Shown here: positions 20,372 through 61,117 of the stretch, piece by piece
How positions within the stretch are numbered: the stretch's first letter is position 1
Layout of the letters: each line of letters starts with the position of its first letter
Source: Deltaproteobacteria bacterium
GTDB lineage: Bacteria; Myxococcota; XYA12-FULL-58-9; JABJBS01
NCBI GenBank assembly: GCA_018668695.1
Contig: JABJBS010000322.1
Location: 5,718 to 69,717 of the forward strand
Length of the DNA stretch: 64,000 nt
Direction: 5' to 3'
The notes under the pieces: generated by a model
Seen by the model: the letters and a program-made list of their open reading frames with translations, nothing else
Databases searched by the model: none
What the model was told of the DNA's origin: nothing
Position numbers and translations under genes: made by a program

Positions 20372-21055
20372 TCAATCCCAATTAGGAACCGGTCTTCCCG
20401 CCAGCTCATAAAAAAGCGACCCGTCATAAAACTTAGCAAGCCGTTCCCGGGTGAGTACTTGGGTCTCTGTTCCATTTACTTCCATCGGCTCGCCAGCAAT
20501 CTTCAACAAAATAGGTAGTTCGAGCTGCGCCAGCGCGCTGCCGAAGAAGCTTTCTCGATTACGAGTCAGAAAGTCGGAGATTTCATCGCCGTCGAGCGCA
20601 CCATCGTTGTTTTTATCAAAACGAGTAAACAGCTCTTCAAACTTCTTGGGATCAAACTCGCCATTGGCATCGAAAACGTCTGAGTCTGAATCGTGCTTCG
20701 ATTTTTGAATTCGGCTTAAATCGATGGTGAGCGCAGGATAACCAGCAACCATCGACGCAATCACAAAATTAACCGCAGCGGCTCCGGCATAACCCTTGAG
20801 GCCATCCACTCCGAGCTCTGCGAGACGCTCGCGAGATTCCCCTACGGTGATTTTTCCGTTGCCATTGGCATCAAAAAATCCAACGTGTTTAGCCAACGCC
20901 GTCGTTTGATGCTTACCCGGGGATGGGCGTGGGCCTTCGTAGGTGTCGAACGGGGTGGATGCCGGCGATGCCGAGCTGACTGAAGGTTCGGCCGCTGCTG
21001 CGCTTGGTATAAAAGAGGCGGCGTGGGCCGTAGAACTGGATGAGACGATAGGCAT
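20372..21055 (-). CDS. Caleosin-family (plant/fungal peroxygenase-like) EF-hand protein with Ala/Ser/Pro-rich N-terminal extension
   Basis: Collinear with Arabidopsis caleosin: KHVGFFDANGNGKITVGE (EF-hand plus conserved heme His), IQKSKHDSDSDVFDANGEFDP (second conserved His), FYDGSLFYELAG. Second canonical EF loop DKNNDGALDGDE. SD GGAGA 5 nt upstream. Confidence 0.7.
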   Translation of the reverse strand: MPIVSSSSTAHAASFIPSAAAAEPSVSSASPASTPFDTYEGPRPSPGKHQTTALAKHVGFFDANGNGKITVGESRERLAELGVDGLKGYAGAAAVNFVIASMVAGYPALTIDLSRIQKSKHDSDSDVFDANGEFDPKKFEELFTRFDKNNDGALDGDEISDFLTRNRESFFGSALAQLELPILLKIAGEPMEVNGTETQVLTRERLAKFYDGSLFYELAGRPVPNWD

Positions 21056-21268
21056 ATTTTTCTCCTTGCTGAGAACTTTATTCAGCGGGACAATCCGCCA
21101 CTGCCTATTATCGGGGAAACGCGTGAATTGTTGCGAGAATCTGGGAGAGGCTTGAATATCTTCCTGCCAATCTCAAAATATCTAATCGTTACAATCTAGT
21201 TTGGTCTCTTAGGGGAGGGTTCACTCATCTAAATAAGTCGAAGTGCTTCGTGGTTTCGGGCACCAAGA

Positions 21269-27847: not shown

Positions 27848-29782
27848 TTAGGCTAAAACTTTAAAAAGCGGCTTTTGAGACTTAACCCCTTTAAGCTCAA
27901 AATCACCGGCGTATTCCGTCTCTTGAAGTAAACCCTCAGCCACGGCTCCAGAGACATAAACCGAACCGGGCTCACACGCTGATTCTATCCGAGCCGCAAT
28001 GTTCACAGTGTGACCAATGGCCGTATAGTCGGCGCGTTTGTCTGAGCCGAAATTACCGACAACCGCCGGGCCTTGATGAATCCCAATTCTCATCGAAAGC
28101 TCGGGATAACCCTTCTCTGCACACCGTTTTGTAAAGACCTGCATCTTCTCTTGCATCGCTAAACCGCAGCTTACCGAGCGCTCACGTTGCTCCTGAGTAC
28201 TCATCGATTTAGGCGCCCCAAAGATGACCATCACCGCGTCGCCAATAAATTTATCGATGGTTCCGCCATGCTCAAAAATCACATCACTCATCACACTTAA
28301 GTAATCATTCAAGAGTTCCGTGATGACCTCTGCACCATACTGCTCACAGGTGGACGTAAATCCTGCCAAGTCCGAAAATAGGATGGTAATGTTACGGCTA
28401 TGGGGTGCTTCATCCATTGTAATCTCTTTAGCCAAGAGTTCATCTACGAGTTGAGGCGGGAGGTAGCGATTCATAATATGGGCAGATAAGAGCTGCTCAG
28501 CTTCGGCATGGTCTTTCTCTTTTTCGAGAACCTGCAGTTTGTCTGCCAAGGCAAAGGAAAGCAGAACAATTTCCGCTGCAGCTCCCAATTGAAATGCATA
28601 ATTTGTGAGAACATTAGCCTCTACCAAACCTACGGTCTTTAAAACGAGGACAGCTTCTCCAATCAATAACATGCCCCACGATGCTAAGTAATAACGTGCA
28701 GGGTGATACCCTTGCCGGACCACACAGAGCGCCGCTGTTATCCAAACAACAATCATACAAACAGCCAACACAACGGTGCTTATGAGAACCACGCGGTTTG
28801 ATAAAACGAAGGCCCCGACCAAAAGGCTCAAAGACAAATAGGTAAGGCCACGTGCTATTAGAGCCAAGCGAGGCAGGCGCTCACGCATTTGCAAGAAAGA
28901 ATAGGTAAATAAGTTTCCGAATAGTGAAAGCGTAATGAGAGCTAGAGAGAGGCCTTGGTTAACCCAGTAAGGAGAGTCCGGCACGAAGAACTCACTCCAG
29001 ATACCATTGCCACAGACCGCCGCCCATCCAAGCGAGAGTACGTAGAACAAATAGTAGAGATGGCTTCGCTCTCGATTAAGAAGATAAATAAAGAGATTGT
29101 AAAAAAAAGTGAGTAAGACAATCCCATAAAACATGCCGATGACCAGCCGAAAGTCCCGCTCAGACTTGCGCAAGGCGTCCAAGGTAAGAACCGCTAATGG
29201 GAGCTGAATGGAGCTTGAGGATTCAACCCTTAAAAGAACAGTGGAGGTCTTTCCGTAGGAGGTCTCGAGTGGGAAAACAAAATTGTGATGTAGAATTGCT
29301 CGGTTGTTAAACGGCAGTATATCGCCGCCGCCTAAGTGCAGCACCCCGCCATCCGCATCGACTTGGTAAAAATCAATTTGGTCTAAATAAGGGTGCCCCA
29401 ACTCCAAGACCCATGTCTTGGCCAAGGGTGTCCTTACGCGAAAGTCAAAACGTAGCCAGTATGCTGACTCACTGAGCCCAAATTGGGGAACCTCTTTGTC
29501 AGCGATCTTCCAAAGCCCTGAACGCACGGGTGACTGGACATCTGAAAGAGTGAAGAGACCTTCTTCGTCCTCGAGCGTGTAGAGATGCCCCAAGAGCGTT
29601 TGCTGCTCCGTTGAACCATCTATAACCAGAGCTTGGGCGAAAACCTGCCCGGGCAAAGCACAAGCTGCCCATACGACAACTAAAAGCTGCAGATAGAGAT
29701 TGGTACTCCTGGGTTCACAAACTGTCTGTCTTGGGTTCACACTTGAGCTTATTGATTTTTCGAGTCGATCCCAAGAGAACAA
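27848..29782 (-). CDS. Receptor-type class III adenylate/guanylate cyclase (7TMR-DISM extracellular and 7TM domains plus CHD)
   Basis: Signal peptide, periplasmic domain, 7 TM helices. C-terminal cyclase domain ILFSDLAGFT...HGGTIDKFIGDAVMVIFGAP...IGIHQGPAVVGNFG. Confidence 0.8.
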   Translation of the reverse strand: MFSWDRLEKSISSSVNPRQTVCEPRSTNLYLQLLVVVWAACALPGQVFAQALVIDGSTEQQTLLGHLYTLEDEEGLFTLSDVQSPVRSGLWKIADKEVPQFGLSESAYWLRFDFRVRTPLAKTWVLELGHPYLDQIDFYQVDADGGVLHLGGGDILPFNNRAILHHNFVFPLETSYGKTSTVLLRVESSSSIQLPLAVLTLDALRKSERDFRLVIGMFYGIVLLTFFYNLFIYLLNRERSHLYYLFYVLSLGWAAVCGNGIWSEFFVPDSPYWVNQGLSLALITLSLFGNLFTYSFLQMRERLPRLALIARGLTYLSLSLLVGAFVLSNRVVLISTVVLAVCMIVVWITAALCVVRQGYHPARYYLASWGMLLIGEAVLVLKTVGLVEANVLTNYAFQLGAAAEIVLLSFALADKLQVLEKEKDHAEAEQLLSAHIMNRYLPPQLVDELLAKEITMDEAPHSRNITILFSDLAGFTSTCEQYGAEVITELLNDYLSVMSDVIFEHGGTIDKFIGDAVMVIFGAPKSMSTQEQRERSVSCGLAMQEKMQVFTKRCAEKGYPELSMRIGIHQGPAVVGNFGSDKRADYTAIGHTVNIAARIESACEPGSVYVSGAVAEGLLQETEYAGDFELKGVKSQKPLFKVLA

Positions 29783-30768: not shown

Positions 30769-32016
30769 CTACGACTCGCTGGGTGCTTCTTCCAGCGGGC
30801 AATAAAGCACCACGGGTTGCTCCCGGCCTCGAATCGGAACTTTTGCCACCGAGCGCCAATGAAAAGCTTCACCAGAACGAAGCCTCGTTTCATCAGAGAC
30901 CAAGATCGGTGTTTTCTGATCCTTCGTCAACTGCTCAATGCGGGCCGTCAGATTGACCGTATCACCGATCACCGTGTAATCCCGGCGCTCAGCTGAACCA
31001 ACATCCCCCAGGACCGCAGGGCCACTGTGAATCCCAATGCCCACCGAAAACTCTGCTTCACCGCGACTGCTCCTAAGTGTGTTGAGTTCTGCAAGTTCGT
31101 TCAACATGCCCATGGCACAAGCTACGGCCGATGTGGCGCTGTTCTGGTCTTCGTTATGCCCCCCAAAATAAGCCAGGATTCCATCGCCCATAAATTTATC
31201 CAAGGTTCCCCCGTGGGCGAAAATGATAGTGACCATCGCTTCGAAGTACTCATTGAGGTGAGTCACCAAAGTACCAGGATCCATGGTCTCAGCCAGCTTG
31301 GTAAAACCCCGAATATCCGCGAAAAGAACAGTGATATGACACCGCCGACTTTCAGTACCCTCCTGGGCAATCTGGGCCGCTACCGCCGGAGAAAAATAGC
31401 GCGCAAGTCGTGAACGCGCCTCCTCCTCAAAGTGAATCCGATGAATCAAACGGTGCTGATAGGCCACGGTCATCATACCGATGCCGCCAGCAAAAAAGAT
31501 GAGTAAGGCATCTGTTAAAATAAATTGGGTGGGGAAATCGATAGCAGCTTCGAGGTAAACCAACGAGCCGATGCCCGCAATGGTCACTGCGGCAATCGTC
31601 GTGCGCCGAAGCGTTAATATCGCGATGAGTAAAATAACGAGAATAAGCGCCATGGCCACGCCAAATGATCGAACGTGCCGACCGGTTTCAATCGCAAGTT
31701 CGTACTGCATCCAAAGTGCAAAAGGTAGGTCCACCACCGCGAGAAAAAGAGTCGACGGAACTCGGATGCCTGAATATTTTCGGTAGCAAAATAAAACAGT
31801 TGCTGCGAGCGCAAGGTAGACCAGTAGGTAAGGTATTTGTTGGCGATAGCTGGAGAGCTCGGAGAGAGCACTGAAGAGAAGACTCAAGCCCAACCACACC
31901 AGAGCCCCAATCACCCGTATCTTAAGGACTGTATCAGCGAGCGTCTGGCGTTGCCGGTCGATGGCTTGCCGGACTTGCTCGGAGAATTCTGTTGTTTTTC
32001 GATTCGACCAGTTCAC
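30769..32016 (-). CDS. Membrane-anchored class III adenylate/guanylate cyclase (6TM plus CHD)
   Basis: Six N-terminal TM helices. VLFADIRGFT...HGGTLDKFMGDGILAYFG...IGIHSGPAVLGDVGS. Confidence 0.8.
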   Translation of the reverse strand: MNWSNRKTTEFSEQVRQAIDRQRQTLADTVLKIRVIGALVWLGLSLLFSALSELSSYRQQIPYLLVYLALAATVLFCYRKYSGIRVPSTLFLAVVDLPFALWMQYELAIETGRHVRSFGVAMALILVILLIAILTLRRTTIAAVTIAGIGSLVYLEAAIDFPTQFILTDALLIFFAGGIGMMTVAYQHRLIHRIHFEEEARSRLARYFSPAVAAQIAQEGTESRRCHITVLFADIRGFTKLAETMDPGTLVTHLNEYFEAMVTIIFAHGGTLDKFMGDGILAYFGGHNEDQNSATSAVACAMGMLNELAELNTLRSSRGEAEFSVGIGIHSGPAVLGDVGSAERRDYTVIGDTVNLTARIEQLTKDQKTPILVSDETRLRSGEAFHWRSVAKVPIRGREQPVVLYCPLEEAPSES

Positions 32017-35536: not shown

Positions 35537-36175
35537 TCAGGCGTGCTTTTGTGCGATCATGATTCCGTCGCGAACCGGTAAGAGTAAGTTATGAACGCGT
35601 GGGTCATCGAATACGAGCGAATTCATACGTGCTAACGCGTGATCAGACTCTTCAACGGGCTCTAAAACCGCCCCACTCCAGAGCGCGTTATCAAGCATGA
35701 TGAAGCCGCCCGGCCGCGTTATTTCTACAAGGTGATTGTAGTAACTCATGTAGTTCACTTTATCTGCATCAATAAAGCTGAGATCGATAGGGCCTTTAAT
35801 TTGTGGCAATGACTCAAGTGCGGTTCCCTGCATTAAAGTGATTTTGTCACCCCATGGGCATCGCTGAAAATACCGGCGCGCCATGTCTGCATGCTTTGGG
35901 TCATACTCAAGAGTAATCAATTCGCCGTCTTCAGGGAGTACCTCTGCCATCTTCATGGAGCTGTAACCCGTAAACGTACCTACTTCGACGATTCGTTTTG
36001 CACCGCTGCTGCGAATCATCATTTGTAGAAAGCTGCCCACCAAGTGGCCCGCAATCATCTGAGGGCATTCCATATTCGCGTAGGTCTCGTCGCGAAGCTC
36101 TTTAAAGAGAGCATGCTCCGGGGTTGAGTGAGCCAACGCGTATTCTTCAATCTTTTCGTCTACTAATCTTGGCAC
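35537..36175 (-). CDS. Class I SAM-dependent O-methyltransferase (family 3, caffeoyl-CoA OMT-like)
   Basis: VEVGTFTGYSS SAM motif, FIDADK, collinear with CCoAOMT-type OMTs. Confidence 0.8.
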   Translation of the reverse strand: MPRLVDEKIEEYALAHSTPEHALFKELRDETYANMECPQMIAGHLVGSFLQMMIRSSGAKRIVEVGTFTGYSSMKMAEVLPEDGELITLEYDPKHADMARRYFQRCPWGDKITLMQGTALESLPQIKGPIDLSFIDADKVNYMSYYNHLVEITRPGGFIMLDNALWSGAVLEPVEESDHALARMNSLVFDDPRVHNLLLPVRDGIMIAQKHA

Positions 36176-36674: not shown

Positions 36675-36778
36675 CTCAGCGTCCCATTTTGACCTAAAAC
36701 GGTTCAAAGCCTTATGGCATCAGGCTTGCAGTAGTTCATACGAAGACAAGAAACCACGACGCACCAGGGGAGAGAGTG

Positions 36779-46882: not shown

Positions 46883-47148
46883 CCTACTCTCCAGGGTCGA
46901 CGGTTAAGGGGCGGCGGGCTCATCTACAAGATTTCCTCCACACGCTGGCATTATCGGGAAAAGTGCAGCGGTGTTTCGTCTAAATCACACCCAAACCCAA
47001 GCAGCTGTAATCATTGGGTTTTCAGCTCTCTTCCAGGAGGCATTGAAGCGAGAATTCAAGGAACATCTTTTCCTTTGGAACCACAAGCACTCCCCGCTAT
47101 AAAACCTTGAATTGGGGTTAAACACGTAAGCATGGTGACTGAAGTACG

Positions 47149-47346
47149 ATGAAGAAGCAGCAGACCATTGAAGAGCTCAACGCACAGCTCCACTCTTTGT
47201 ACAAAGAGAAAGAGGAGCTGCAAGAGGCTCTGGGCGTCAGTGATGCGCGCGATATCATCCTCATGGTTCGCAATCTTGAAGAACAACTCTGCGCTCTCTA
47301 CGCCGAACGCCAAGAGTCTTTAAACAATGAAAAAGAGTCATCATGA
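47149..47346 (+). CDS. Small coiled-coil protein, translationally coupled to the HTH-PYP gene
   Basis: 65-aa all-helical, heptad-rich sequence. Stop TGA overlaps the ATG of the next gene (ATGA). Confidence 0.4.
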   Translation: MKKQQTIEELNAQLHSLYKEKEELQEALGVSDARDIILMVRNLEEQLCALYAERQESLNNEKESS

Positions 47347-47909
47347 GTGAAGAGCTTCTTAGTAGCCAAAAGGCCGCTGCTATTCTTAAAGTCGCGGTAT
47401 CCACAGTAAAGCGCTGGACCGACGAAGGACTCTTACCCTGCGTCAAGACTGCAGGCGGTCACCGGCGTTATGCCCTATCCGATCTTGAACGGTTTTCATC
47501 CTTGCAAGGAGGCATTGCCGACGAGATTCCCATGATGGATAAGGATAAAATCCACGATTTACCACTGGGTGTGATTGAGCTTGATGACGAGGGTAATATT
47601 ATCTTCTACTCAAAGGGTGAGTCGAAACTTTCTGGATACAAAGCCGAAGAAGTCATGGGTCGGCATTTTTTTACCGACGTGGCGCCTTGCACCAACAACC
47701 GCATTGTTTACCGCCCGTTTCAAGAAGGTATTCTTAAAGGCGTGCTGAACATGGAAGTAAGCTACACCTTCACCTATGTGATGCGCCCTACGAATGTACG
47801 CTTGCACCTCTTTCGTCACCAAGTAACACAGACAAATTGGCTGCTGGTTTGGCACGAGTTGGCCACCGAGCAAGAGAGCACACCCGCGGCGGCAAGTATT
47901 GAAGAATAA
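47343..47909 (+). CDS. Excisionase/MerR-type HTH fused to a complete photoactive yellow protein (PYP) domain
   Basis: N-terminus AAILKVAVSTVKRWTDEGLLPCVKTAGGHRRYALSDLERF (HTH_17-type). Residues ~62-180 are collinear with Halorhodospira PYP: GNIIFYSKGESKLSGYKAEEVMGRHFFTDVAPCT (Tyr42, Glu46, Cys69 equivalents), YTFTYVMRPTNVRLHL (Phe96, Tyr98, Met100 equivalents). Cys codon at 47688-47690. Confidence 0.8.
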   Translation: MSEELLSSQKAAAILKVAVSTVKRWTDEGLLPCVKTAGGHRRYALSDLERFSSLQGGIADEIPMMDKDKIHDLPLGVIELDDEGNIIFYSKGESKLSGYKAEEVMGRHFFTDVAPCTNNRIVYRPFQEGILKGVLNMEVSYTFTYVMRPTNVRLHLFRHQVTQTNWLLVWHELATEQESTPAAASIEE

Positions 47910-48146
47910 GCCTGGTCTATACACATTCCTGCTTAATCTGTTTTTCAAGGCGCGAGGAGGCAAAGGATGGCCACGATCACTGCCGGAGTTGAGGCAAAAC
48001 GCAGCCAGGGCAACTTGGTCTGGAAATTCGGATACGGCAGCAACATGCCCCAGGAGAACCTGCGCCAAAAGAAGGGCCTCGATCCCCAAGGTGCAAAGCC
48101 TCTGGCGGTCCTTCGAGAATTCTGGGACGAGCAATAAAGCGCCGCA

Positions 48147-59917: not shown

Positions 59918-61117
59918 GTGCCATTGAACGAAAATTTCGGTGATTACATGCTTTTGGAGCAGGTCGGCATCGGCGGCATGGCTGAGGTCTACTTGGCGCG
60001 CCGTACGGGTATGGCGGGCTTTGAAAAAGACATCGTCATCAAGCGCATTCGACCTCACCTCACCGAGCAAAGAGCCTTCGTCAATATGTTCCTTGGCGAG
60101 GCAAAACTTGCCGCTCAGCTCATCCACCCCAACATTGTGCACATCTATGATCTCGGCCGGATCGAGGACAGTTACTTCATCGCCATGGAGTATGTAGCCG
60201 GGCAAGATATGAGCGCCATCATCCCCAAAATCAAAGAGCGGGGCATTCATCTACCTGTAGAATATGCATTAAAAATAGGTAGTTCCGTGTGCGAGGCCCT
60301 TAATTACGCGCACAACCAAAACGATACCCAAGGCAAGCCGCTGCAAATTGTTCACCGCGATGTTTCACCGGAAAATATCCGAATCGCCTGGACTGGAACC
60401 GTCAAAATTCTCGATTTCGGCATCGCCAAAGCGGCCACTCAAATGCACGAAACCAAGGCCGGGGAAATCAAAGGCAAGCTCTGTTACATGTCGCCCGAAC
60501 AGGTGCTGGGAAAAGAAGTCGACAAGCGCTCGGACATCTTTGCATTGGGCTGCGTTCTTTACGAAGCGCTTACAAGTTTTAAACTTTATTCTGGCAGTAA
60601 CGATCTCGATATTATGAATCAGATCATCGATGGCCGAATCTACCCGCCGAGCTACTTCCGAGATGAAATCCCGGCCCGAGCCGAAGAAATTATCATGAAA
60701 GCGCTTCAGAAGGATCGCAAGAAGCGTTACCAAACTGCACAAGAAATGCAGATGGATATCGATGACTTTCTAGCCCAAAACGAGTTCACCCCGTCGAATA
60801 TGCACTTGGCCAACTTTCTCAAGCAGCAATTCAAGGAGGAACTGGCCGACGAGCAACAACGTAGGCGGATGGACACTCCAACATCGTCCAAGCAGCCAAA
60901 CAGTCCCCCACCGCCGCCCAGTATTTCCGCGGTCACATCCCACTCAACACCCTCGAGCCAGCGCCTGGCCCGTCAGCTCACACCCGGAACAGCCGAACTT
61001 CAGCTTACGGTCCCCAACGATACCCTTGAGCGCCTAGAGCGCCTGGCTGGCAAGAGAAAACTTAGCCGTGAAGAAGTACTTCGCGACATCATTGAGCACT
61101 ATCTAAAGTACCACTGA
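59918..61117 (+). CDS. Ser/Thr protein kinase with C-terminal ribbon-helix-helix-like tail
   Basis: GTG start with SD GAAGGAGAG. Kinase subdomains GIGGMAEVYLA, VIKRI, HRDVSPENI, DFGIAK, SPEQ. Pro-rich linker, then LQLTVPNDTLERLERLAGKRKLSREEVLRDIIEHYLKY (RHH/CopG-like). Confidence 0.85.
   Translation: MPLNENFGDYMLLEQVGIGGMAEVYLARRTGMAGFEKDIVIKRIRPHLTEQRAFVNMFLGEAKLAAQLIHPNIVHIYDLGRIEDSYFIAMEYVAGQDMSAIIPKIKERGIHLPVEYALKIGSSVCEALNYAHNQNDTQGKPLQIVHRDVSPENIRIAWTGTVKILDFGIAKAATQMHETKAGEIKGKLCYMSPEQVLGKEVDKRSDIFALGCVLYEALTSFKLYSGSNDLDIMNQIIDGRIYPPSYFRDEIPARAEEIIMKALQKDRKKRYQTAQEMQMDIDDFLAQNEFTPSNMHLANFLKQQFKEELADEQQRRRMDTPTSSKQPNSPPPPPSISAVTSHSTPSSQRLARQLTPGTAELQLTVPNDTLERLERLAGKRKLSREEVLRDIIEHYLKYH

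Follow-up and report, generated by a model that had tools for sequence, protein, structure and literature searches.

The stretch of DNA analysed here, called the window below, comprises 64,000 nucleotides (64 kb) of a contig assigned to a Deltaproteobacteria bacterium of the Myxococcota (JABJBS010000322.1), and it contains a pair of overlapping genes. The product of the larger gene, of 188 amino acids (aa), carries a helix-turn-helix (HTH) DNA-binding domain in front of a complete photoactive yellow protein (PYP) domain, and its homologies and predicted structure make it likely that this HTH–PYP protein is a light-sensing DNA-binding regulator. The smaller gene encodes an acidic 65-aa protein that is predicted to fold as a two-helix hairpin, and relatives of this hairpin protein are encoded beside, or fused to, PYP domains of many kinds. 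On balance, the two genes probably encode a light-signalling pair, i.e., an HTH–PYP regulator and a hairpin that binds its PYP domain. What is described is a PYP photoreceptor with a new type of output together with a previously undescribed accessory family; it is not categorically new.

The 188-aa protein is laid out as a winged HTH of the HTH_17/MerR type, a 20-residue linker helix and the PYP domain. A phmmer search against the PDB returned more than 30 entries of Halorhodospira halophila PYP with E values of 1e-20 to 4e-23, residues 11-122 of the latter pairing without a gap with residues 58-169 of the query at a constant offset of 47. A first interpretation of the window, made from its letters and open reading frames (ORFs) and called the sequence-only reading here, had claimed a residue-for-residue alignment over 34 residues, and the ungapped match thus extends far beyond it. 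All the residue equivalents listed there, including the codon of the chromophore-attachment cysteine and the replacement of Thr50 by Ser and of Arg52 by Tyr, could be read off the sequence and this alignment (Table 1). The NCBIfam model TIGR02373 (photo_yellow) aligned with residues 57-169 over its positions 9-121 of 124 and scored 100.3 bits, and the Pfam PAS profile matched residues 70-150 with 31.1 bits (cut-off 22.6). A model of the protein was built with AlphaFold2 (AF2), using a 35-sequence family alignment as input, and had a mean predicted local distance difference test score (pLDDT) of 84.9. When it was submitted to Foldseek, the top matches were exclusively PYP structures, and superposition on PYP crystal structures gave 117 aligned columns out of about 125 residues with a root-mean-square deviation of 1.5-1.6 Å, a template modelling (TM) score of 0.87-0.89 normalised to PYP and 36% identity. 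Since the N-terminal cap is included in this superposition, the domain is a PYP and not a generic PAS domain. The absence of the cap had been named beforehand as speaking against the assignment; it is present, the alignment beginning at PYP residue 11 and the TIGR02373 match at model position 9. The PYP family has been defined by Tyr42, Glu46 and Cys69, which bind p-coumarate, together with the aromatic array (PMC9664959). At the level of sequence, the 188-aa protein has the equivalents of Cys69, of the two residues that hydrogen-bond to the chromophore phenolate, Tyr42 and Glu46, and of the cap.

At the N-terminus, an HTH of the excisionase/MerR type had been proposed, and the Pfam profiles agree: HTH_17 (PF12728; residues 5-51, E 1.4e-11, 44.9 bits, cut-off 27), MerR_1 (PF13411; 36.4 bits, cut-off 21.6) and MerR (PF00376; 35.2 bits, cut-off 28.2) all scored above their cut-offs. 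The best HTH model was NCBIfam BldC (NF033787; E 8e-12), at 44.8 bits below the family cut-off of 77, and the excisionase model TIGR01764 fell narrowly under its own (28.1 bits, cut-off 28.8). The PDB relatives of the isolated HTH (residues 1-63) were CtMerR (8jbs, 8.8e-9), BldC (6ama, 2.6e-6) and, marginally, CarH (5c8d, 0.055). CtMerR is an adenosylcobalamin-binding regulator whose light response was seen spectroscopically and crystallographically, and whose DNA-binding domain was noted to be unlike that of CarH (PMC11796333). Myxococcota proteins that combine an HTH with a B12-binding domain (P0115-P0120) have HTHs 55-61% identical to that of the window. Because HTHs this similar carry B12-binding domains, the parallel with CarH, which had been drawn as a conceptual one, is closer than that and becomes a statement of homology about the HTH, shared with CtMerR and with these Myxococcota proteins. 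As far as sequence comparison can tell, one type of DNA-binding module is combined with B12 in some proteins and with PYP in others, two light sensors that are not related to each other. The near-invariant residues of the HTH in the family alignment are K23-R24-W25 and G38-G39-H40-R41-R42. Behind the wing strand (41-44), the AF2 model has a single helix, the linker of 20 residues, which leads straight into the PYP domain, its C-terminal end sitting at the position of the PYP cap helix alpha-1 (residues 58-62 correspond to PYP 11-15). MerR regulators typically have a long C-terminal coiled-coil dimerisation helix and an effector-binding region after the wing. BldC-type HTHs are without the MerR dimerisation helix and are bound to DNA as head-to-tail multimers.

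In a search of 5.8 billion proteins, about 80 clusters with this architecture (HTH_17/MerR plus PAS) were recovered, of 175-230 aa and at 39-52% identity, besides closer HTH–PYP relatives at 87-94% identity. The gene of the window is identical in sequence to that on contigs of two metagenome-assembled genomes (MAGs) likewise named 'Deltaproteobacteria bacterium' (GCA_018702995.1 and GCA_018668175.1). Y89, E93 and C116, which correspond to Tyr42, Glu46 and Cys69, are the same in all 35 aligned members and at all 33 HTH–PYP loci, and F109, the APCTNN loop, Y141-T142-F143, M147 and the equivalent of Trp119 are nearly invariant. The ratio of non-synonymous to synonymous differences per site (pN/pS) of about 0.08 shows that the gene is under purifying selection. 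The loci are mostly labelled as Myxococcota, Kofleriaceae, Sandaracinaceae or Haliangium, and a few stand under evidently mis-binned organism names. When PYP domains were arranged in a neighbour-joining tree, one pure clade held 28 of the 33 HTH-fused domains, and the remaining five branched beside it, each with an HTH–PYP as its nearest neighbour. This is a distance tree without support values, which was judged by a bipartition and a nearest-neighbour test, midpoint rooting being uninformative; the domain sequences are in this way consistent with a single old fusion event. As a rule, the sister stand-alone PYPs also have Ser or Ala in place of Thr50 and are without Arg52, and these substitutions are for that reason regarded as traits of the lineage and not as signs of decay.

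The 65-aa gene precedes the HTH–PYP gene, and the stop codon of the former overlaps the start codon of the latter in the sequence ATGA. The ORF list and the sequence readout confirmed both reading frames and their overlap, through which the two products would probably be coupled in translation and made in roughly equal amounts. Compared with its ortholog at locus L001, the small gene differs at 31 of 40 synonymous sites, i.e., these are saturated, and at 19 of 155 non-synonymous sites (pN/pS about 0.16). Since the synonymous sites are saturated while the amino acids are conserved, the ORF is a real gene under purifying selection. The sequence-only reading had described it as a small coiled-coil ORF overlapping by ATGA; the gene and the overlap stand, and the fold is better described as a two-helix hairpin, for the AF2 model (pLDDT 77) consists of a helix of residues 2-28, a turn G29-V-S-D32 (GVSD) and a second helix of residues 33-64. 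The core motif of the family is QLxxLYxE(K/R)ExLxxxLG(V/I/T)(S/A)DAxxIIxMVRxLExQLxxLY, in which two similar half-repeats, (E/A)QLxxLYxE(K/R)E, are joined by a G-x-S/A-D turn. The protein belongs to no Pfam or NCBIfam family, and its only Pfam matches, to SlyX and Takusan, are weak and represent noise.

The hairpin family is defined here as proteins with this motif unit that are encoded beside, or fused to, a PYP domain, the protein of the window being the first sequence of the profile. An exhaustive profile search of 1.84 billion representatives gave 522 members, 331 of them with E <= 1e-10. No Pfam domain is recognised in any of them, and their names are only 'hypothetical' or, by way of a fused domain, 'photoactive yellow protein'. 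The family is previously undescribed and has no Pfam model. It includes giant members (P0276-P0300) of up to 1,290 aa with as many as 16 tandem hairpin units and no recognisable Pfam domain, some of which are labelled 'photoactive yellow protein' by the Joint Genome Institute.

The association of hairpin and PYP holds well beyond the window. A match to the hairpin profile hidden Markov model was found in 81 of 86 non-redundant pyp loci from at least eight phyla, with fused and stand-alone PYPs alike, and in 79 of the 86 the nearest copy was less than 1 kb away from the PYP domain (median distance 271 bp), a range that takes in only about 20% of the locus sequence. Next to HTH–PYP the hairpin gene was found in 30 of 32 loci, both exceptions being on truncated contigs, and it occurs there in three gene orders: upstream and co-directional, divergent (about 17 loci) or downstream (3 loci). 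The ATGA overlap is confined to the clade of the window, other upstream co-directional pairs having gaps of about 76-113 bp. In L008, L014, L085 and other divergent pairs, the start codons of the small gene and of HTH–PYP overlap or lie within a few bases of each other (CATG-type). Unexpectedly, nearly all of the stand-alone PYPs recovered in the locus search have a hairpin neighbour as well; they occur in Gemmatimonadota, Salinibacter relatives, Ignavibacteria/Kapaibacteria, Armatimonadota, Leptospiraceae, Planctomycetota, Myxococcaceae and a Janthinobacterium MAG. The reciprocal test gave the same result, all of the six homologs of the small protein that were chosen without reference to PYP adjoining a PYP gene: three lie beside HTH–PYP, one beside a 140-aa PYP, and two in operons of a hairpin-repeat gene, pyp, an AMP-binding ligase and an aromatic ammonia-lyase.

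In relatives of Salinibacter, Salinivenus and Longibacter, several hairpin units are moreover fused in-frame to a C-terminal PYP-like domain without the cysteine. These fusions form about 35 clusters (P0241-P0275) of 330-515 aa in which APAA, APAT, APGT or APST replaces APCT, and their genes adjoin a genuine PYP gene (L044, L051, L052, L054, L059, L065, L067, L071, L079 and L080); they may be non-photoactive PYP decoys or scaffolds. Synteny across phyla, its survival of rearrangement and gene fusion, which are classic indicators independent of one another, together point to a functional, and probably physical, link between hairpin and PYP. That the small gene is a coupled partner, as had been proposed, is thus strongly supported, but it is a companion of PYP domains generally and is not special to the HTH fusion. 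From these gene arrangements, direct binding of the hairpin to PYP is somewhat favoured. A further step, in which the hairpin would be a general direct PYP partner, i.e., an adaptor that reads one photostate and relays or gates the signal, with HTH–PYP the first natural PYP to act directly on DNA, is put forward only tentatively, as a possibility with the odds somewhat against it.

The DNA upstream of the pair was searched for elements through which such a regulator might act. Divergently from the operon lies a Peptidase_M91 gene, in the same arrangement in the window, L090 and L091 and always so within the clade of the window; it is, speculatively, a possible regulatory target. Between the two transcription units, the motif CATTATCGGGAAAA and a following GTTTCG are invariant in five of five orthologous loci whose synonymous sites are saturated, and an exact 12-mer of this island was found only in loci of the same clade. 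Conservation of this kind makes the island a candidate operator or promoter element. Closer to the operon, a sigma-70-like element is kept in the five orthologous loci, the remaining intergenic DNA of which has diverged, and is presumed from this to be the operon promoter; an automatic promoter and terminator scan found nothing exceeding background, and missed this element because the last base of its -10 hexamer is A. Elsewhere in the window there are two copies of CATTATCGGGAAAA with 2 mismatches, which are no better than chance, being equalled in 3 of 100 shuffles. One 2-mismatch copy, TATTATCGGGGAAA (21106-21119), likewise not above chance, lies about 50 nt upstream of the start of a gene for a caleosin-related EF-hand protein (20372..21055, minus strand, E 3e-30); the caleosin family is known mostly from plants and fungi. 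The inverted repeat AAACCCAA-N13-TTGGGTTT (46993-47021) was considered as an operator and rejected, as it is not conserved in the 90% ortholog L001.

Among the HTH–PYP loci, the small gene is the only neighbour that is conserved throughout the family, and an apparent conserved neighbour cluster at 18 loci proved to be an antisense-ORF artefact of GC-rich DNA. In one sub-clade (L002/L089, L006, L022, L024, L086 and partly L011; L089 1..15711 is the same locus as L002), the pair lies within a cluster of genes for DNA photolyase, YbgA-like DUF1722, DUF2878, SRPBCC cyclase, DUF2177, GTP cyclohydrolase II, amine oxidase, SOUL, DUF1295 and ferrochelatase. We take this gene set to resemble known light-induced or photo-oxidative-stress regulons, and the cluster lends circumstantial support to a role in light response. 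Downstream of the pair in the window, a 56-aa ORF (47967..48137, plus strand, 'KFGYGSNM...') is called as a gene in the MAG annotations; it is the truncated N-terminal part left over from an AIG2/gamma-glutamylcyclotransferase-like gene. At the equivalent position in L090, an ortholog locus of 94% identity, there is a full 297-aa AIG2_2 gene (L090 3625..4518).

The mechanism that we infer covers chromophore loading, photocycle, light response, DNA binding, contact between the two proteins and the direction of regulation. p-Coumarate would be linked as a thioester to Cys116 and hydrogen-bonded to Tyr89 and Glu93. Blue light would isomerise the chromophore, with a proton transfer involving the Glu46 equivalent, and the N-terminal cap would then partly unfold or loosen from the PAS core, as in H. 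halophila PYP. Because the cap helix is also the C-terminal end of the HTH linker, loosening of the cap would shift the geometry of the HTH, i.e., it might pull on or free the linker helix and so alter how the HTH is positioned or oligomerises on DNA. The hairpin would bind the PYP domain and tune or relay the signal, for which it would either stabilise one photostate or form a bridge between PYP domains. The genes under control would likely be the operon itself and nearby genes, perhaps the M91 peptidase gene in the clade of the window and the photolyase/light-stress cluster in another.

Several observations weigh against a light-sensing regulator. All 33 HTH–PYP loci are from MAGs or metagenome contigs, with no cultured host among the loci recovered, and since the loci compared are those whose PYPs are most similar to the PYP of the window, the sample is biased that way. 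The TIGR02373 score lies under the equivalog cut-off of 143.05, which is a weak criterion because the model recovers only about 20% of accepted PYP homologs (PMC9664959). Arg52 is replaced, by Tyr here, and the position is variable across the HTH–PYP family. The conserved upstream island is restricted to one clade, and the operator search over intergenic DNA defined none, divergent pairs often being almost without such DNA; as their start codons overlap or nearly so, there is no shared intergenic region to compare, and each promoter must lie within the coding sequence of the other gene. The Pfam scan of the substantial ORFs also found no light-related neighbours in the 64-kb window. The chief difficulty is the chromophore. 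No methylidene-imidazolone (MIO) motif and no AMP-binding signature were found in a six-frame motif scan of the window, nor any Lyase_aromatic or AMP-binding domain in a Pfam scan of its 47 substantial ORFs, which bears out the earlier remark that genes for tyrosine ammonia-lyase (TAL) and p-coumaroyl-CoA ligase (pCL) do not occur there. Moreover, a MIO/TAL-type lyase lay within about 10 kb in none of 30 non-redundant HTH–PYP loci (474 kb), whereas 23 of the 55 sister loci with a stand-alone PYP had one (Fisher p = 6e-6). The supply of chromophore is therefore unexplained, and this is the main uncertainty; it is not disqualifying, because these genes are often missing beside pyp in general, the published frequencies for all pyp neighbourhoods being only 5-10% for TAL and about 30% for pCL (PMC9664959, PMC12826048). 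From where the mostly marine or sediment Myxococcota-type hosts obtain p-coumarate, with TAL and pCL missing near all HTH–PYP loci, becomes a biological question. A caffeoyl-CoA-type O-methyltransferase gene (Methyltransf_3, E 4e-57) is located at 35537..36175 on the minus strand, 11 kb from the PYP gene; it stands for hydroxycinnamate-related chemistry, but its proximity is probably coincidental.

The same findings could be read to mean that the HTH-fused PYP does not sense light in vivo, and is instead a ligand or redox PAS sensor or a thiol switch working through Cys116. The distribution of the lyase, the absence of both TAL and pCL from the window and the lack of conservation of Arg52 fit this, as does the proposal of neofunctionalised redox-type PYP homologs in other clades (PMC9664959). 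We nevertheless consider it improbable, since the set of residues that bind p-coumarate (Tyr42, Glu46, Cys69, Phe62, Phe96, Met100 and the APCTNN loop) is invariant or nearly so, which would be unexpected after loss of the chromophore, since most pyp operons have no TAL or pCL anyway (PMC9664959, PMC12826048), and since one sub-clade lies within the photolyase/light-stress cluster. Arg52 is absent as well from sister stand-alone PYPs, including the Salinibacter and Leptospiraceae relatives, and the PYPs of S. ruber and L. biflexa have been reported to be photoactive.

Two further alternatives concern the hairpin protein. It might be a maturation factor, a chaperone that keeps apo-PYP open or aids chromophore loading, and not a signalling partner; in favour of this, it accompanies PYP whatever the output domain, and it heads the stand-alone hairpin-pyp-pcl-tal operons, where it is expressed together with the enzymes of chromophore synthesis. 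However, the PYP-like domains to which hairpin repeats are fused have no attachment cysteine and are incapable of covalent loading, the giant proteins with up to 16 repeats look structural or scaffolding, and the HTH–PYP loci retain the small gene though pCL and TAL are not nearby. According to work cited in PMC12826048, H. halophila holo-PYP is in addition obtained from E. coli with only TAL and pCL. A maturation role is accordingly judged unlikely, if less so than a PYP that does not respond to light. That the adjacency is a by-product of shared ancestry without a functional link, or that the 65-aa ORF is not a gene, might be argued from its short, low-complexity or coiled-coil-like sequence, for which spurious similarity such as the weak SlyX and Takusan matches is possible. 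This has effectively been refuted: conserved amino acids accompany saturated synonymous sites, the adjacency is kept in at least eight phyla and through three gene orders, the hairpin also occurs fused in-frame to PYP-like domains, all six reciprocal cases agreed, and best matches within 1 kb of pyp occur far more often than position would predict.

In comparison with H. halophila PYP (2phy, 1nwz), the 188-aa protein has the same fold with the cap, the same Tyr42, Glu46 and Cys69 and the same pocket aromatics, but adds an N-terminal DNA-binding domain, has Ser and Tyr at positions 50 and 52 and is without an adjacent pcl or tal. PYP is likewise the sensor module in Ppr (PYP-phytochrome-histidine kinase), Ppd (PYP-phytochrome-GGDEF/EAL), MCP-PYP, PYP-V4R and REC-PYP (PMC9664959, PMC12826048), whereas here an HTH in front of the PYP domain forms the output, without a kinase, cyclase or chemoreceptor in between. 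Ppr and Ppd had been cited in the sequence-only reading as the characterised fusions; both are known, but they are not the only ones, as MCP, V4R, REC and HisKA fusions have been published. CarH/LitR and CtMerR (5c8d, 8jbs) are also one-component light-dependent regulators with an N-terminal MerR-superfamily HTH, but their sensor is a B12-binding domain responding to green light and not a PYP with p-coumarate responding to blue light. No B12-binding domain (PF02310/PF02607) was found in the 188-aa protein with Pfam and NCBIfam, and it is for that reason a CarH analogue and not a member of that family. In EL222 and other LOV-HTH proteins, a blue-light sensor of PAS fold is also fused to an HTH, and the signal is expected to pass through a helix that packs against the PAS core and is then released; the chromophore of EL222 is, however, a flavin and its HTH is of the LuxR type and C-terminal, in contrast to p-coumarate and an N-terminal HTH of the MerR/BldC type. 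We know of no dedicated small partner of EL222 or LOV-HTH proteins. BldC of Streptomyces (6ama), which lacks the long dimerisation helix, has a small MerR-like HTH of the same kind, but is a stand-alone protein of 68 aa without a sensor domain.

For a dedicated PYP partner, the only experimental precedent is Rc-PBP of Rhodobacter capsulatus, a small acidic protein encoded beside pyp that binds PYP in a manner dependent on the light state (bioRxiv 10.1101/2021.06.01.446672). Compared by description, Rc-PBP has 142 aa, with N-terminal helices and then a beta-sheet, and the hairpin protein has 65 aa and two helices. No Rhodobacter member is found among the named matches of the hairpin family, and its named members of about 140 aa are all 'hypothetical' and come from Spiribacter, Arthrospira-associated or metagenome sources.

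Xing, Gumerov and Zhulin (2022; PMC9664959) surveyed 789 RefSeq PYP homologs in a paper whose main text is without HTH, MerR or DNA-binding, and whose neighbourhood table contains no HTH_17 architecture, the MerR and HTH entries being neighbouring genes. Dohmen et al. (December 2025; PMC12826048) covered 984 homologs, 153 multidomain proteins and 113 operons, and listed fusions to PHY, HisKA/HATPase, GGDEF/EAL, V4R, MCP and REC and, as operon partners, pCL, TAL, GGDEF/EAL, histidine kinases and BLUF. There, only proteins of more than 200 aa were counted as multidomain, a threshold that would hide the HTH–PYP family because most of its members have 175-200 aa. Neither of the broad surveys thus describes a DNA-binding PYP fusion, and neither describes a small helical partner encoded beside pyp, although a passing mention in the older literature is possible, and to this extent HTH–PYP is not an already characterised family. 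Database records do already carry domain annotations of HTH–PYP proteins, and where reviews deal with the control of bacterial genes by light, PYP appears in them only by way of Ppr.

Few photoreceptors have been studied as intensively in biophysics as PYP, yet according to both surveys its downstream signalling chain is essentially unknown (PMC9664959, PMC12826048). A natural PYP on a DNA-binding domain would be the shortest route from light to DNA, with an output that can be read as gene expression, and HTH–PYP would provide optogenetics with a compact blue-light transcription switch of 188 aa with a chromophore chemistry unlike that of LOV, BLUF or B12. The hairpin family offers a concrete and testable candidate for the long-unknown PYP signalling partner across phyla and, if the hairpin is indeed a general PYP partner, a decades-old gap would be filled for the single-domain PYPs of many phyla. 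The positions of the features in the window are collected in Table 1.

Table 1. Features of the gene pair, its products and the upstream region, with positions in the window
Feature	Position	Strand	Basis or description
Peptidase_M91 gene	45992..46882	-	Pfam PF14891, 8e-14; divergent from the operon
Conserved non-coding island (candidate operator or promoter element)	46949..46978	.	CATTATCGGGAAAA at 46949-46962, then GTTTCG at 46973-46978; between the divergent M91 gene and the operon
Candidate promoter of the two-gene operon	47075..47103	+	-35 TTGGAA 47075-47080, 17-nt spacer, -10 TATAAA 47098-47103; conserved island
65-aa ORF	47149..47346	+	Acidic two-helix hairpin protein; PYP-gene-associated family without annotation
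188-aa HTH–PYP ORF	47343..47909	+	Candidate one-component light-responsive DNA-binding regulator
Winged HTH, residues 5-51	47355..47495	+	HTH_17/MerR superfamily, BldC/CtMerR type; Pfam, PDB relatives, family alignment
Linker helix, residues 45-64	47475..47534	+	AF2 secondary structure
PYP domain, residues 57-169	47511..47849	+	Both N-cap helices and PAS core; TIGR02373, H. halophila PYP alignment, superposition
Tyr42 equivalent, Y89	47607-47609 (TAC)	+	Ungapped alignment
Glu46 equivalent, E93	47619-47621 (GAG)	+	Ungapped alignment
Thr50 equivalent, S97			Ungapped alignment
Arg52 equivalent, Y99			Ungapped alignment
Phe62 equivalent, F109			Ungapped alignment
Cys69 equivalent (chromophore attachment), C116	47688-47690 (TGC)	+	DVAPCT motif; ungapped alignment
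Phe96 equivalent, F143			Ungapped alignment
Tyr98 equivalent, Y145			Ungapped alignment
Met100 equivalent, M147			Ungapped alignment

Elsewhere in the window, an unusual fusion of a kinase with a DNA-binding domain is encoded at 59918..61117 (plus strand), in which a Ser/Thr protein kinase carries a C-terminal ribbon-helix-helix of the CopG type (RHH_1, E 2.5e-7). Three class III adenylate/guanylate cyclases are encoded within 12 kb, at 27848..29782 (minus strand), 30769..32016 (minus strand) and 36776..39760 (plus strand); a 7TMR-DISM sensor is part of one of them, and another is a fusion with NB-ARC and TPR domains, the region being dense in genes of cyclic-nucleotide signalling.

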